From assembly GCA_049852185.1 (NCBI GenBank), contig CP187540.1: a DNA stretch of 64,000 nucleotides; one strand, written 5' to 3'. Positions 4,450 to 58,773 of this stretch are shown one piece after another (position 1 is the first letter of the stretch; each line of letters opens with the position of its first letter). The position numbers and the translations under genes were made by a program. Below the pieces are notes generated by a model that saw nothing but the letters and a program-made list of their open reading frames with translations, was not told the origin of the DNA and made no database searches. The DNA is from Methanocaldococcus sp. 28A. Its GTDB lineage: Archaea; AGJL01; Methanococci; Methanococcales; Methanocaldococcaceae.

Positions 4450-5547
4450 ATGAAACTACATGAATATGAGGCAAAGAAAATATTTAAAAAGTATGGAATA
4501 CCAGTTCCAGAAAGTTTTTTAATAAATAAAGGAGATGATTTAAACAGCATAAATGTTGATAAAGAAGTTGTTTTAAAAGCTCAAGTTTTAGTTGGTGGAA
4601 GAGGGAAAGCTGGAGGAATTTTATTCGCATCAAACAAAGAAGAATTTATAAAGAAGGCTGAAGAGTTGTTTAACAAAGAAGTTAAAGGAGAAAAAGTAGA
4701 AAAAATTTTAGTTGAAGAAAAATTACCAATAGAGAAGGAATATTACGTATCAATTATTATTGATAGAGATGCTAAAAAACCATTAGTTATTTTCTCAACT
4801 GAAGGGGGAGTAGATATTGAAGAAGTTGCAGAAAAAGAGCCAGAAAAGATTATAAAATACCACATTAATGTTAAAAAACCTTTCCTACCATATATAGCGA
4901 GATGGATAGTTAAAGATGCTAAGTTACCAAGTAATGAGATAGGAAAGGTTGCTGATGTTATTTATAAGTTATACAAAATCTTTAAAGATTTAGATGCAAC
5001 AATGGTTGAAATAAATCCTTTAGTTATAACTAAGGATGGAAATATCTATGCCGCTGATGCCGTTCTTCACTTAGATGATGATGCAGCATTTAGACATAAT
5101 TATGAGATATTTGAAGAATACAAAAACAAAGAAAAATTGCCATTTGCCTATGTTGAATTAGATGGAGATGTTGCTGTTATAGGTAATGGGGCTGGTTTAA
5201 CATTGGCAAGTATGGATGTAATTAACAACCTCGGCAGAAAACCAGCTTGTTTCTTAGACATTGGTGGAGGAGCTGATACTGAAACAGTAAAATTAGCTTT
5301 AAGAAAAGTTTTAGAGAATAAAAATGTTAAAGGTATATTTATCAATATCTTGGGAGGGATTACAAGGTGTGATGAAGTTGCCAAAGGAATAGTTGAGGTT
5401 TTAAAAGAACATCCAAATGTAAAGTTTGCTGTTAGAATGATGGGAACTAATGAAGAAATCGGTAGGAAGATTTTAGAAGAGCATGGAATTCCTTATGAAA
5501 CATCAATGGAAGAGGCTGGAAAAAAACTTATTGAAATGTTAAGTTAA
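4450..5547 (+). CDS. sucC: Succinyl-CoA synthetase beta subunit
   Basis: MKLHEYEAK, KAQVLVGGRGKAGGI, GNGAGL, NILGGITRCD. Confidence 0.95.
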   Translation: MKLHEYEAKKIFKKYGIPVPESFLINKGDDLNSINVDKEVVLKAQVLVGGRGKAGGILFASNKEEFIKKAEELFNKEVKGEKVEKILVEEKLPIEKEYYVSIIIDRDAKKPLVIFSTEGGVDIEEVAEKEPEKIIKYHINVKKPFLPYIARWIVKDAKLPSNEIGKVADVIYKLYKIFKDLDATMVEINPLVITKDGNIYAADAVLHLDDDAAFRHNYEIFEEYKNKEKLPFAYVELDGDVAVIGNGAGLTLASMDVINNLGRKPACFLDIGGGADTETVKLALRKVLENKNVKGIFINILGGITRCDEVAKGIVEVLKEHPNVKFAVRMMGTNEEIGRKILEEHGIPYETSMEEAGKKLIEMLS

Positions 5548-5575
5548 TTTATTAACTTTCTTTTTTGGTGAAATA

Positions 5576-6487
5576 ATGATATTAGTTACTGGGGGAGCTG
5601 GTTTTATTGGTAGTCATATTGTAGATAAGCTCATTGAAAATAATTATGATGTAACTATTTTAGACAATTTAACTACAGGATATAAGAATAATATAAATCC
5701 TAAAGCAAATTTTATAAATGCGGATATTAGGGATAAAGATTTAGATGAAAAAATTAATTTTAAAGATGTCGAAGTTGTTATTCATCAAGCAGCTCAGATA
5801 AATGTTAGAAGCTCTATTGAAAATCCAATATATGATGGAGATATTAACATTTTAGGAACTATAAATATCTTAGAGTTTATGAGAAAGCATGACATAAATA
5901 AAATTGTATTTGCATCTTCTGTAGCAGTTTATGGAGAGCCAAAATATCTTCCTGTAGATGAAAACCATCTTATAAAACCACTATCCCCTTATGGGTTAAG
6001 TAAATATGTTGGAGAGGAATATATAAAGCTATATAATCGCCTCTATGGGATTGAATATGCAATTTTAAGATACTCAAATGTTTTTGGTGAGAGGCAAGAC
6101 CCAAAAGGAGAAGCTGGAGTCATAAGCATATTTATAGACAAGATGTTAAAAAATCAAAACCCAACTATTTTTGGAGATGGTAACCAAACAAGAGATTTTG
6201 TCTATGTTGGAGATGTTGCAAAAGCAAATATTATGGCACTAAATTGGAAAAATGAAATTGTTAATATAGGAACTGGAAAAGAGACATCAGTAAATGAATT
6301 ATTTAATATAATAAAAAATGAAATTGGGTTTAAAGGAAATGCAATACATGATAAACAAAGAGAAGGAGAGGTTTATAGAATTTATTTAAATATAGATAAA
6401 GCAAAGTCTTTAGGTTGGGAGCCAGAGGTTGATTTGAAAGAGGGAATAAAAAGAGTTGTTAATTGGATGAAAAACTATAAAGCGTAA
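5576..6487 (+). CDS. galE: UDP-glucose 4-epimerase-like NAD-dependent epimerase/dehydratase
   Basis: GGAGFIG, YGLSK, GDGNQTRDFVYV. Confidence 0.85.
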   Translation: MILVTGGAGFIGSHIVDKLIENNYDVTILDNLTTGYKNNINPKANFINADIRDKDLDEKINFKDVEVVIHQAAQINVRSSIENPIYDGDINILGTINILEFMRKHDINKIVFASSVAVYGEPKYLPVDENHLIKPLSPYGLSKYVGEEYIKLYNRLYGIEYAILRYSNVFGERQDPKGEAGVISIFIDKMLKNQNPTIFGDGNQTRDFVYVGDVAKANIMALNWKNEIVNIGTGKETSVNELFNIIKNEIGFKGNAIHDKQREGEVYRIYLNIDKAKSLGWEPEVDLKEGIKRVVNWMKNYKA

Positions 6488-6501
6488 AACTTTCTATTTG
6501 G

Positions 6502-6558
6502 TATGGGGTCTGTCCAACATGGACAATTATAGACAAATGTCCACGTTGGACAGACTCA
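6502..6558. repeat. Palindromic mini-element (MITE-like family 3)
   Basis: Near-perfect hairpin tggggtctgtccaacatggaca-attatagacaaa-tgtccacgttggacagactca. Related half-copy at 41971-42003. Confidence 0.7.
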
Positions 6559-6569
6559 CTTTAATACCC

Positions 6570-6696
6570 TATCTTATTCTAATTTCTTATAGGATTATTG
6601 GTTTTTCTGGAGAAGTATCTAAATCCTTTAAAAAAATCTTTCAGCAACTTTTTTATCTTTAACAATGTATATTCCCTCTTCCAACAATGTTATCAT
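6570..6696 (-). pseudogene. Frameshifted small-gene fragment
   Basis: Minus strand reads MITLLEEGIYIVKDKKVAERF, then a frameshift to LKDLDTSPEKPIIL, with host-like codon usage. Confidence 0.35.
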
Positions 6697-6734
6697 AATT
6701 TTAATTTTTACCTCTAAATAAATTCAGTATTAAA

Positions 6735-7193
6735 CTAGACCATATATTTCTTTTTCCTAATACTTAGATAATGTTTTACAAACTCTTCTTGCTCTTCAGT
6801 CTCAACAGCATATTGACAATAATGCTCTCTAACATACTTTATTGGATTTTTAACTCCATTCAATCCAGCCCATACAGCCAATATAGTTCCAGTTCTTCCA
6901 TGCCCTCCAATACAAGAAACTACAACCTCCTTATTCTTAGAAACATGAAATTTTATAAAATCAACGATTAAATCCATATCTTCAACAGTGGGAATACTAT
7001 AATCTTCAATGGGAACATATAAGGTTTGAATTTTTATAGGATATTCCATAATTTCATACCAACTTTTTAGCCACAATTCGTCTAATATTACAAAACCACC
7101 AATTCTATCCAATAAGTGAAATGGAAAGTTTGGAAAACTGGCAGGTCTTAAACCAAAAATACACACTTCACCATTATGTCGGCACTTGACCAT
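6735..7193 (-). CDS. Protein-tyrosine/dual-specificity phosphatase family protein
   Basis: CX5R motif SCIGGHGRTG, PIEDYSIP, AVETEEQ. RBS gggtga precedes the ATG at 7193. Confidence 0.88.
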   Translation of the reverse strand: MVKCRHNGEVCIFGLRPASFPNFPFHLLDRIGGFVILDELWLKSWYEIMEYPIKIQTLYVPIEDYSIPTVEDMDLIVDFIKFHVSKNKEVVVSCIGGHGRTGTILAVWAGLNGVKNPIKYVREHYCQYAVETEEQEEFVKHYLSIRKKKYMV

Positions 7194-55675: not shown

Positions 55676-56656
55676 GTGATAGTCATGTTTGATTTAGAAA
55701 CAGAAAGAGTTATAAAAGAAATTGAAAATTTAAATAAAAAGAAACCAAAAGTAGTTTTTCAAGCTCCAGAAGGTTTAAAATTATCTGTTGAAAAAGAAAT
55801 TGAAAAAATTAAAAGATATTTTAAAGAGAAGGGAAAAGAAATTGAGATATATCTATGGGGAAATACTTGCTTTGGTGCGTGTGATTTAATAGATAGTCAT
55901 GTCAAAAACCTAAATATTGATTTAATTATACATTACGGGCATGAAAAATTAAGCTATGCAAAGCCAGAGATTAAAACACTCTTTATTCCTGCCTATCATT
56001 TATTTGATAAAGATGAAGAAGAGAAAATTTTGAATGATATAAAAGAATTTATAGAAAAACATGAAAATGAAGGAAAAAAGGTAAGTTTAGCAACAACCAT
56101 ACAATATAAAAAACTTTTAAAGGATTTCAATCCAAGTATAATCTTAGGTTGCAGAGGGGAAGTTAAAGAAGGGGATGTTATATTATTTATAGGAACTGGG
56201 AGGTTTCATCCCCTAATGCTTGCTTACAAATACCAAAAAGAGGTTTTTATATACAATCCTGTATCTAAATGCTTTGATAGGATATATGAAGAAGAGATTA
56301 ACAAGTTTATTAAAAAGAGAATTTCAGCAATATCTAAATTAATTCTAAATATGCCAAAAAAAGTAGGGGTTGTTTTATCAACAAAAAAAGGACAATTTAG
56401 AAAAAAGATTTTTGATGAGATTATAAAATTATTAGAAAAAAACAATATCAACTATATCTCAATAATTGTAGATAACATCTCTCCAGATATTTTATTCTAT
56501 GATGTTGATTGCTATATAATAGTTGCATGTCCAAGGGTTGTGTTAGATGACTATATATTATACAAAAAACCAATTTATACTCCAGAAGAATTCAAACTCT
56601 TCATAGAAAATAGCTTTGAATATAAGTTTGATGAAATTAAAGAAAGTGATTTTTAA
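55676..56656 (+). CDS. dph2: Diphthamide biosynthesis enzyme Dph2
   Basis: QAPEGLK, CFGACD, HYGH, ILGC, GTGRFH, ACPR. Confidence 0.93.
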   Translation: MIVMFDLETERVIKEIENLNKKKPKVVFQAPEGLKLSVEKEIEKIKRYFKEKGKEIEIYLWGNTCFGACDLIDSHVKNLNIDLIIHYGHEKLSYAKPEIKTLFIPAYHLFDKDEEEKILNDIKEFIEKHENEGKKVSLATTIQYKKLLKDFNPSIILGCRGEVKEGDVILFIGTGRFHPLMLAYKYQKEVFIYNPVSKCFDRIYEEEINKFIKKRISAISKLILNMPKKVGVVLSTKKGQFRKKIFDEIIKLLEKNNINYISIIVDNISPDILFYDVDCYIIVACPRVVLDDYILYKKPIYTPEEFKLFIENSFEYKFDEIKESDF

Positions 56657-56679
56657 GTTTCCATCCTTGTTTTAATAAA

Positions 56680-56787
56680 CCCATAGAGGGGGCAAAGCCC
56701 CCTCTATTGGTATACTCCCCGCACCATAGGGCTTCGCCCTATTGGTATACCCGGGATGCATTGCCTCGCTTCGCTTGGCAATGCCTC
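56680..56787. repeat. 108-bp GC-rich three-hairpin element (HgcC/MJRE-like) in the trailer repeat
   Basis: Hairpins atagagggggc-aaa-gccccctctat, atagggc-ttc-gccctat and gcattgcc...ggcaatgc; flanked by ttaataaa at 56672-56679 and 56788-56795. Confidence 0.8.
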
Positions 56788-56937
56788 TTAATAAATGCTA
56801 TTAAAAAACAGTTTCCATCCTTGTTTTAATGGACTAACGATTCAAACGGGACGACAGGTAAATATATATATTGATTTAAATGAGTTTCCATCCTTATTTT
56901 AATGGACTACTTATTCAAACTTGAACATGGTGATATT

Positions 56938-57234
56938 ATGAATAAAACAATTAAGTTAGTTATATTTATATTTTTGTGGATAATGGTATTAATGTTAATT
57001 TCGGTTATTGGAGTAATATACGATAATAATATTCATATATTACTATTATTGGCGGTATGTTTTTGGCTTTGGATAATTTTTGGGATATATTTAGTAATGA
57101 AATGGTTGTATAAATCTGGGTTGATATGGATTATATTGCTTGTAATTTTATCAGCAATATTTCCATTATTTGGATTAATTATAATTTTAGTGTTGATATT
57201 ATATTCTATATTATCATCAGATGGGGGAGTCTAA
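56938..57234 (+). CDS. 98-aa hydrophobic (~3 TM) protein encoded inside the CRISPR array
   Basis: RBS ggtgat before ATG 56938; uninterrupted ORF lying between repeats 56884 and 57314. Confidence 0.65.
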   Translation: MNKTIKLVIFIFLWIMVLMLISVIGVIYDNNIHILLLLAVCFWLWIIFGIYLVMKWLYKSGLIWIILLVILSAIFPLFGLIIILVLILYSILSSDGGV

Positions 57235-57958
57235 TGATTGATTTGTGTGATGAGAAAAATTTATAATTTTTGTTTTTGATTGCAATTTTATTTATTTGTT
57301 TGGTTTGTATTTAGTTTCCATCCTTATTTTAATGGACTAACGATTCAAACCGGAGATATAGATATATCTAAAGAAGATTCTATATTAGATATAAGTTTCC
57401 ATCCTTATTTTAATGGACTAACGATTCAAACTAGGCGATAAAGTTATTGTTGGAAATTCTGATGAATAGTTTCCATCCTTATTTTAATGGACTAACGATT
57501 CAAACATTATACAGAGATTATAAAGATGCAATAAATTTCACAAATGAAAGTTTCCATCCTTATTTTAATGGACTAACGATTCAAACTTATTCCAGATATA
57601 AAATTTAAGGATTTGGAAAATTGGTTTCCATCCTTATTTTAATGGACTAACGATTCAAACACTCCCCTAACGCCGATAATAACGAACCGAGAGAGAGTTT
57701 CCATCCTTATTTTAATGGACTAACGATTCAAACTGTCTATAAAACCTAAGTATTTCCTCATAATAGCCAGTTTCCATCCTTATTTTAATGGACTAACGAT
57801 TCAAACGTATCCAGATTCCATAAAAATAATGATTACGAGAGACGAATGTTTCCATCCTTATTTTAATGGACTAACGATTCAAACAAGCTTATAATAATAA
57901 CGAATTAGGACACAATAACGAGTTTCCATCCTTATTTTAATGGACTAACGATTCAAAC

Positions 57959-58300
57959 CCTACCAACTATTACCTATTTAATACACAAACTCCTATATAA
58001 ATCTTTCTTTTTAACATCGATTTTTCTGACTGCCCAATTATTGAAACCTTTATAAGAGTAAGAAAGATTGTGCAAACTCTTTATAAATAAAATGCACAAC
58101 CATAAACAAAAATCTCAATAATCAGACATTATTTTATATAAAATAAATCTTATTTATCTATAAAATCTACACAATAAAAACAAATAACAAAAATCTCTAA
58201 AAAATCTAAATTTTAATCAGAAAAAATTAGTAATACTTTTTATCAATTTTCTAGTACCAAAATTAAGGCAGGGGTATATAAAAGCAAGAAAGTAAAATTA
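57959..58300 (-). promoter_or_regulatory. CRISPR leader with BRE/TATA
   Basis: AT-rich and non-coding. Minus strand aaagaaagatttatatagg lies at ~57992-58010, pointing into the array. The right boundary is approximate. Confidence 0.75.
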
Positions 58301-58476
58301 ATATTTCTAATGCCTAAATTAAGTTTTTTAATAAATAACAAAATACACTTTGTCCTTATAAAAGTTTATTTTATTTTGCACAAAACTACAATTAACCAGA
58401 ATAAATAAAAATAAATATCAAATATTTAAATTTTAACTCAAAAATTTTATATCCACAAAGCAAAACTTAAATATTT

Positions 58477-58773
58477 TTAACAGAATGTCCTATTTGTTGC
58501 TGGTATGCAAAGAGTTTCATTACAGTTTGGACATGTTATAGTAACTTTATCTTTTTCATAGTATGCTTTAAATGGTTTTTTACAATATGGGCAGAAATAT
58601 ATCCTTCCACCAGTTTCTTTACACTCCCCAACTTCCCCAACTGTTGGATATCTTTCAAAAGTAATTTTACTTTCTTTATTTTGGTATTTAAAAAATTTTT
58701 CAACTAAATTTAAGTAAATATTAACTGCAACTTCATTTACACAATCTTTTCCACAGTATGGACAATTATACAT
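58477..58773 (-). CDS. Small Cys-rich zinc-finger protein
   Basis: CPYC, CPYC and CPNC motifs; RBS gaggtga. Confidence 0.8.
   Translation of the reverse strand: MYNCPYCGKDCVNEVAVNIYLNLVEKFFKYQNKESKITFERYPTVGEVGECKETGGRIYFCPYCKKPFKAYYEKDKVTITCPNCNETLCIPATNRTFC

Follow-up and report, generated by a model that had tools for sequence, protein, structure and literature searches.

A gene-length spacer in a CRISPR array of Methanocaldococcus sp. 28A

The window analyzed here, a stretch of 64,000 nucleotides (nt) from Methanocaldococcus sp. 28A (G000:C1:128001-192000, contig CP187540.1; the source genome, G000, has 1.56 Mb in two contigs and 29.7% GC), contains a CRISPR array in which an open reading frame (ORF) for a hydrophobic 98-amino-acid (aa) protein occupies the position of a spacer. 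The array lies on the minus strand between a dph2-type diphthamide synthesis gene and a gene for a zinc-ribbon-like protein, and its eleven full 37-nt repeats start at 56811, 56884, 57314, 57395, 57469, 57550, 57624, 57697, 57770, 57848, and 57922. G000 has five arrays with 43 spacers in total, of which 42 are 34 to 51 nt long; the remaining one is 393 nt. This oversized "spacer" (56921-57313) is enclosed by full repeats at 56884-56920 and 57314-57350, bearing out the original prediction of a gene-bearing spacer between two full repeats, and it runs exactly from repeat end to repeat start. The right flanking repeat opens the active part of the array (57314-57958), which consists of nine identical repeats (A at position 13; subtype AACG, at positions 26 to 29) and eight spacers of 36 to 44 nt, and which adjoins a leader of ~345 nt (57959-58303) common to all five arrays of the genome. 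To the left lie the other flanking repeat, of subtype ACTT, an ordinary 36-nt spacer (56848-56883), and the oldest full repeat (56811-56847), of the AACG subtype with G at position 13.

The insert has 23% GC (T 47%, A 30%, G 18%, and C 5% on the plus strand) and is present in a single copy in the G000 genome. The original prediction had reported neither terminal inverted repeats nor a target-site duplication, and we found neither at the insert ends. We rejected an insertion sequence or miniature inverted-repeat transposable element as its identity: it lacks these two features and a transposase, its sole ORF encodes the 98-aa protein, and it is single copy. It is not a canonical CRISPR spacer either; full repeats flank it, but it is 393 nt long and the flanking repeats are not duplicates of each other. 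A leader remnant between tandem arrays was also rejected, since an nhmmer profile of the five leaders gave an expectation value (E) of 9.9 for the insert versus 4.6e-22 for the long gap of genome G016 described below and 6.5e-104 for the positive control. The insert DNA had no match in phages or plasmids, and a class-wide set of 40 genomes including G000 yielded only low-complexity noise in the 39 others.

The 98-aa ORF as a very probable gene

The insert was originally described as holding an intact 98-aa ORF with about three transmembrane segments, together with the start of a further hydrophobic reading frame. The 98-aa ORF (56938-57234, plus strand) and its three hydrophobic segments proved real, with a start at 56938 rather than 56939. 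The further frame is unconvincing: it begins with TTG at 57280, has no ribosome-binding motif, and continues through the repeats. An in-frame version of the 98-aa ORF from an ATG at 56902, inside the left repeat, would encode 110 aa; we favor the start at 56938 because of the position of the ribosome-binding motif GGTGA (56929-56933, plus strand), 4 nt before the ATG. The 3′ end of the 16S rRNA is GATCACCTCC. GGTGA stands upstream of 170 of 577 long ORFs of G000, and in 80 of those 170 with the 4-nt gap seen here, which is the modal spacing; the hexamer GGTGAT occurs at 0.17 per kb per strand in this genome. Two T5 runs on the plus strand, 33 to 44 nt past the ORF stop (57267-57277), appear to resemble an archaeal oligo-T terminator.

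The encoded protein has a grand average of hydropathicity of 1.96, hydrophobic segments at about residues 6-27, 33-54, and 61-93, and the C-terminus SSDGGV. As read from the sequence, the N-terminus and loop 2 carry lysines and loop 1 and the C-terminus carry acidic or polar residues; for a putative membrane protein, such charges at the segment borders only are a consistent in/out pattern. T accounts for 41%, 63%, and 32% of codon positions 1, 2, and 3, respectively. Dinucleotide shuffles of the insert produced open frames of ≥98 codons in 24 of 5000 and 187 of 30000 cases (0.5 to 0.6%), and none of these 187 null frames reached 63% T at codon position 2 (null median, 45%). The codon likelihood of the ORF was the best of the six frames, by a margin that 0.8% of 120 spurious nested ORFs reached; we do not lean on this measure, because it separates the ORF from nested spurious ORFs but not from open shuffles. 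Overall, the ORF is very probably a real coding sequence.

The 98-aa protein had no match in Pfam, PHROGs, PADLOC, or NCBIfam. No relative emerged from a set of 5.8 billion proteins searched by word index, from 1.84 billion representative proteins searched with phmmer, or from viral, genome, and metagenome contigs scanned by back-translation, and a six-frame search of 60 related genomes returned only weak matches (E > 0.002), several with stops. The sequence itself is present in a protein atlas, where its best feature score, 0.83, is below the meaningful level; the atlas model is of low confidence (predicted local distance difference test, 0.62; predicted template modeling score, 0.33). Class I holins are marked by three membrane helices, a charged C-terminal tail, and a phage lysis context. 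We rejected this class for a protein that ends in SSDGGV, lacks a PHROGs match, and has no adjoining phage genes.

Antisense arrangement relative to the array

In all five arrays of G000 the 345-nt leader is always on the side of the identical repeats, with the degenerate terminal repeats on the other side. The minus strand of the window leader carries TTTATATA, a TATA box (58001 down to 57994) located 35 nt before the first repeat and kept in five of five aligned leaders. The repeats match Rfam family CRISPR-DR7 in minus-strand orientation (E = 4e-4, though short of the gathering score), and a terminator-like minus-strand hairpin comes after the trailer. The leader on the right, the degenerate repeats on the left, the strand of the CRISPR-DR7 match, and this hairpin together argue that the array is read from right to left, so that the plus-strand ORF is antisense to it; the first three of these lend support to the earlier proposal of a gene antisense to the predicted array transcript.

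On the array strand the insert contains one T5 run (one A5 run on the plus strand), the same as an ordinary spacer, and the array transcript probably reads through it. Cas6b would then cut at the flanking repeats and release an RNA of ~430 nt complementary to the whole mRNA of the gene, and an array RNA so fully complementary would damp expression of the gene. A type I-B cas cluster (cas8b, cas7, cas5, cas3, cas4, cas1, and cas2) lies between two of the other arrays of G000, and cas6b precedes one of those arrays. The spacers of the window array gave only short chance matches when the G000 genome was searched for self-targets.

The flanking repeats belong to different subtypes

The two repeats that enclose the insert differ at three adjacent positions (ACTT on the left versus AACG on the right). 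Among the 45 repeat copies of the genome, counted at ≤3 mismatches, the left flanking repeat alone has CTT for ACG; its uniqueness, noted in the original prediction, thus stands. The accompanying suggestion that this change was made to remove a stop codon and fuse the ATG of the repeat to the gene is not supported, as positions 26 to 29 vary among arrays and genomes (AACG, AACT, ACTT, AATT, ACCG, ACCT, AAGT, AGCG, GGCG, and GGTG). The ACTT copy is one base away from repeats of genome G005 (97% over 38 nt). Because the repeat subtype varies and this copy is so close to the G005 repeats, there is no need to invoke a triple mutation under selection for an open frame, and the ribosome-binding motif itself favors the start at 56938. 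Repeats to the left of long gaps share C at position 27 (ACTACTT in G000, ACTACCG in G005, and ACTACCT in G016), whereas the leader-side repeats have A. Flanking repeats of unlike subtype in both G000 and G005, along with nine identical repeats on the leader side, are better explained by a junction of two arrays that differ in descent than by duplication of a repeat at spacer integration.

The array block is specific to G000 at this site

We compared the site with 16 genomes of the same genus. All 16 have dph2 orthologues, at 68 to 96% DNA identity, and in 14 of them dph2 and the zinc-ribbon gene abut (0 to 83 nt) with nothing in between; in the closest relative, G011 (96% identity), the two genes overlap by a few bases. 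The two genes are not neighbors in G002 and G013. Since the flanking genes abut in 14 of 16 genomes, the whole 1.8-kb array block between them, insert included, is specific to G000 at this site. The same 14 genomes speak to whether the insert is an ordinary chromosomal gene that relatives keep at this locus without repeats, a condition raised in the original prediction, and this is not the case. None of the 16 genomes contains a repeat-spacer-repeat unit of the window array, and hence none supplies an empty-site allele.

The leader is absent from 7 of the 16 genomes, including G011. In two others, a leader with repeat remnants lies on the 5′ side of dph2 (G001:C1:1689657-1690214 and G010:C1:425210-425477), which indicates that CRISPR modules have landed beside dph2 more than once.

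A second gene-bearing insert in the genus

We surveyed 33 leader-adjacent loci from nine same-genus genomes, a sample that covers arrays with this leader family. The first 31 loci contain 135 repeat gaps of ≤60 nt. Among the longer gaps, two of 71 nt consist of a truncated repeat plus a spacer, and one of 102 nt holds another partial repeat plus a hairpin unit. One true 64-nt spacer occurs among spacers of 35 to 39 nt in G013 (locus L073, G013:C1:1110850-1118039), implying that control of spacer length is not strict in this repeat family.

A 1546-nt gap in G016 was considered as a similar case and rejected: it starts with a leader remnant (nhmmer E = 4.6e-22), and it therefore represents two tandem arrays around two genes. 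At this locus (L050, G016:C1:133259-140500, positions 5303-6999), cas6b is followed by a degenerate terminal repeat, the leader remnant, two ORFs, and a short array with its own leader. The two ORFs, of 128 and 165 aa, lie on the minus strand, which is the array strand, and the 165-aa product has a weak HEPN match (E = 0.007); the pair is possibly toxin-antitoxin-like.

Only one of the 33 loci, G005:C116, has a repeat-flanked, gene-bearing insert like that of the window. Its order is cas6b, partial repeat with hairpins, repeat, 451 nt, repeat, spacer, repeat, and leader, with the leader 83.5% identical to that of the window and the flanking repeats again unlike (ACCG on the left and AATT on the right, differing at positions 27 to 29). 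On the strand antisense to the array, the 451-nt insert contains ~66 nt with TATA-like boxes, GGTGA 4 nt before an ATG, and an ORF of 100 aa whose product has three hydrophobic segments. Next comes a second GGTGA-ATG start, which opens a P-loop kinase-like ORF that the next repeat cuts off after 22 codons; its first 25 residues match dTMP kinase (E = 0.003). Relatives of the 100-aa protein at 26 to 39% identity occur in five other genomes, and seven clusters were found in a large protein set, the named ones labeled Methanocaldococcus and Methanotorris. The family has ten invariant positions, including K50, K55, F57, W58, P63, P73, L86, and R87, and occupies one conserved chromosomal context in G012, G001, and G019. 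Judged by this family, the 100-aa ORF is a real gene. No donor of the G005 insert was found in the 40 class genomes.

The inserts of G000 and G005 share no DNA similarity. Homology of their two proteins was not demonstrable, given a BLASTP E of 0.12, hhalign probabilities of 0.6 to 0.7% in two profile comparisons, and a global alignment score no better than that against reversed or circularly permuted sequence. The two proteins are suggestively alike in architecture: in both, one loop contains DN, another is rich in K, and the third hydrophobic segment contains a proline.

When we scanned the 40 class genomes for a repeat end followed within ≤61 nt by GGTGA, 3 to 6 nt, and ATG, only the two inserts and six ordinary spacers matched. 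The six spacers, from four genomes, carry GGTGA-N(3-6)-ATG immediately past the repeat, and do so on the antisense strand relative to the guide (for example, G000:C1:744695-744733); a reversed-pattern control of the scan gave no matches. These starts may reflect only gene-dense donors.

Flanking genes, trailer elements, and other array remnants

The dph2-type gene (55676-56656, plus strand; Pfam PF01866, E = 1.3e-59) ends with a stop codon that abuts a 20-nt partial repeat (56657-56676) corresponding to the first 20 nt of the repeat. The partial repeat is joined to a GC-rich hairpin element and thereby to a 134-nt trailer module of small GC-rich palindromic elements (56677-56810), which includes a hairpin (56683-56707) that is terminator-like on the minus strand and a multicopy unit of ~68 nt (56723-56791). 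Beyond the leader, the zinc-ribbon-like protein of 98 aa is encoded at 58477-58773 on the minus strand.

Most of the length of the ~68-nt unit is matched at 12 other places in G000, and the trailer module as a whole gave 24 blastn matches at E ≤ 1e-4 in this genome, itself included, some of them covering only part of the ~68-nt unit or the first hairpin unit. Copies of the palindromic elements are found across same-genus genomes, and the trailers of the window array and of G005 are homologous (71.6% over 197 nt). The elements have the form ATAGrGGG...CCCyCTATTGGTATAC (window 56657-56810; also L054 6257-6345 and L089). The junction of the 20-nt partial repeat with them, TTTTAAT|AAACCCATAG..., falls at the same point in three arrays: the window array (184 kb in G000), G005:C116, and G005:C122. 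Their appearance is that of a miniature element or of a structured RNA, one that either targets the repeat or is tied to it.

The window array and the 744-kb array of G000 end in the same hairpin element, and their leaders (57959-58303 and G000:C1:743909-744251) agree even where the other three leaders differ; one of the two array blocks may have been copied from the other. Two further traces lie away from any array, an orphan leader fragment with 79% identity to the leader (G000:C1:55232-55504) and a solitary degenerate repeat (G000:C1:999668-999686). The second contig of G000, C2 (10,393 nt), repeats a 3,896-nt unit in perfect tandem (100% identity at that offset); it probably represents a small circular plasmid that the assembly rendered as a concatemer.

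Origin and role of the insert

We tentatively favor the reading that recombination at repeats put foreign DNA, with one complete gene for a small membrane protein, between repeats of unlike subtype, and that this gene now persists mostly as a tolerated passenger. The insert would be a piece from an unsampled donor and would have come to lie between two repeats early in the life of the array. Recombination at repeats would have joined an old remnant (partial repeat, hairpins, repeat, spacer, and ACTT repeat) to a leader-proximal array (nine AACG repeats and the leader), and the insert would since have been kept at the trailer end, without disturbing production of the eight newer guide RNAs. In support of this reading, both ends of the insert have exact full-length repeats without terminal inverted repeats or a target-site duplication, and the subtype of the left flank resembles repeats of other arrays and genomes. 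That the G005 insert ends inside the start of a kinase-like gene shows that arbitrary fragments get captured. We infer a foreign origin only from the absence of matches and the 23% GC of the insert. Transposition and ordinary spacer uptake fit less well than recombination at repeats.

Several points weigh against this reading. The donor sequence was not found in any collection searched (proteins, phages, plasmids, and viral, genome, and metagenome sequences), and the recombination route has left no direct trace; three clustered substitutions in the old repeat after a spacer-type integration could produce the same arrangement. As for the gene, its codon-model margin is reached by 53% of composition-matched open shuffles and so does not discriminate. 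Only 17 nt of the insert precede the ATG, so the insert lacks a promoter of its own; any promoter must lie in the left repeat or in the 36-nt spacer, whose plus strand holds TATATATA at 56863, a possible TATA box of the ORF. Lastly, two of two short inserts carry a whole gene for a membrane protein of ~100 aa, and both genes are antisense to the array. This is more order than random capture predicts, and it hints at selection for function.

If Cas1, Cas2, and Cas4 instead integrated a 393-bp fragment at the then leader-proximal repeat, duplicating that repeat, and eight normal spacers were added later, one would expect to find what we see in several respects: cas1, cas2, and cas4 are present, the repeat-insert-repeat junctions are exact, spacer length is loose in this family (34 to 51 nt in G000 and 64 nt in G013), and in G005 the inserted piece is an arbitrary fragment whose cut falls inside a gene. 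However, such an acquisition should leave two identical flanking repeats, yet they are unlike at three adjacent positions in G000 and at positions 27 to 29 in G005, and inserts of 393 and 451 nt exceed the normal size about tenfold, with no intermediate sizes among the 42 and 135 normal spacers; we consider this route unlikely. Doubt could also fall on the ORF itself, which might be no gene but a side effect of the T-rich, C-poor composition of filler DNA lying between a newer array and the remnant of an old one. A plus strand of 47% T and 5% C favors open, hydrophobic frames, 0.5 to 0.6% of shuffles are open for as long, the codon-model margin is no better than that of null frames, the atlas model is of low confidence, and no relative turned up in any collection searched, including the 1.84 billion representative proteins. 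Set against this are GGTGA at the modal 4-nt spacing and the rarity of GGTGAT, the T content at codon position 2 that 0 of 187 null frames reach, the charged residues found only at segment borders, and the G005 counterpart, which is demonstrably a conserved gene, and we regard a noncoding filler as very improbable. Least credible of all is a misjoin of the 393-nt piece into the array during assembly. Repeats identical across arrays can mislead assemblers, but a 37-nt repeat is shorter than usual sequencing reads, the assembly is in two contigs and 99.94% complete, the single-copy piece would need repeat flanks wherever it was located, and the independent assembly of another species, G005, shows the same kind of structure.

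The antisense arrangement has a functional counterpart in the idea of an array-embedded module akin to a type I toxin-antitoxin pair, in which the membrane protein would be harmful, the ~430-nt antisense RNA cut from the array transcript by Cas6b would silence its mRNA, and loss of array transcription or of cas6b would be punished. In favor of this idea, the gene is complete, translatable, small, and very hydrophobic, and its orientation is exactly antisense to that of the array transcript; the array strand of the insert contains one T5 run only; cas6b is present; and another species repeats the antisense arrangement with a different gene for a small membrane protein. Moreover, random 400-nt fragments of a genome with genes of ~900 nt would rarely hold whole small membrane-protein genes. 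Usual type I toxins are single-helix proteins smaller than this one, and with 98 aa and three hydrophobic segments the product exceeds their typical size. The G005 family, for its part, resides in ordinary conserved chromosomal contexts in G012, G001, and G019, which is not toxin-like, and the third giant gap, in G016, is two tandem arrays with genes on the array strand. From the sequence features at hand, we judge a toxin module to be distinctly unlikely. A bolder version would make methanogen arrays holders of gene cassettes: the ~430-nt RNA cut by Cas6b would silence the embedded gene, and the array with Cas6b would be the antitoxin of a membrane toxin, or else the switch of a membrane-acting suicide effector released when CRISPR is shut down. 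We think this very improbable; if it were true, the different genes at the equivalent trailer position in two species would represent cassette turnover at a defined site.

Significance and comparison with known systems

CRISPR arrays are treated as stores of short guides, and the window array stores a whole, apparently functional gene in the position of a spacer. This, together with its recurrence in a sister species, indicates that genes can be captured and retained by repeats. Since the gene is oriented against the array transcript, the locus offers a natural test of cis regulation by array RNA and of long antisense RNAs from Cas6 processing. Both inserts lie at the meeting point of two repeat subtypes, a position that points to recombination between arrays and bears on how arrays are built and rebuilt. 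Even as no more than a tolerated passenger, the insert would be a warning to spacer-mining pipelines and automatic array callers.

In open-access text, word searches aimed at genes within arrays or at spacers described as long, giant, or oversized returned no CRISPR precedent. The nearest published systems are the Clostridium difficile pairs, CreTA, and interrupted arrays; none of these is known to have a gene exactly in spacer position and antisense to the array. In C. difficile, type I toxin-antitoxin pairs with antisense RNA genes of their own lie beside type I-B CRISPR arrays, and their toxicity was shown (2018, PMC5961336). Like those pairs, the window has a small hydrophobic membrane-protein gene tied to a type I-B array, with an overlapping antisense RNA possible. 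Unlike in those pairs, its gene lies between two repeats rather than beside the array, and its sole candidate antisense RNA is the array transcript.

CreTA is a CRISPR-regulated toxin-antitoxin system in which a small RNA reportedly serves as the toxin and its promoter is matched in part by a guide (PMC8501985, PMC9458426). The likeness to the window is that the system is of type I-B and that degenerate or variant repeats flank a short spacer beside a possibly harmful gene; the difference is that the toxin is a small RNA there, whereas the window candidate is a 98-aa protein. We rejected a CreTA-type guide here, as the best seed match of the 36-nt spacer to the ORF region is 9 of 12 positions and 298 of 500 shuffled spacers do as well.

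CRISPR arrays can be interrupted by insertion sequences or other mobile DNA. The window array resembles such interrupted arrays in having foreign DNA inside it, but the insert has no transposase, terminal inverted repeats, or target-site duplication and extends exactly from repeat end to repeat start. The G005 insert shares with that of the window the genus and repeat family, the trailer-end position, a gene of ~100 aa with three hydrophobic segments, the antisense orientation, and the unlike flanking repeats. It differs in having TATA-like boxes in the ~66 nt upstream, in ending inside a second gene, and in encoding a protein with a known small family. This recurrence in a second species raises the interest of foreign DNA inside an array.

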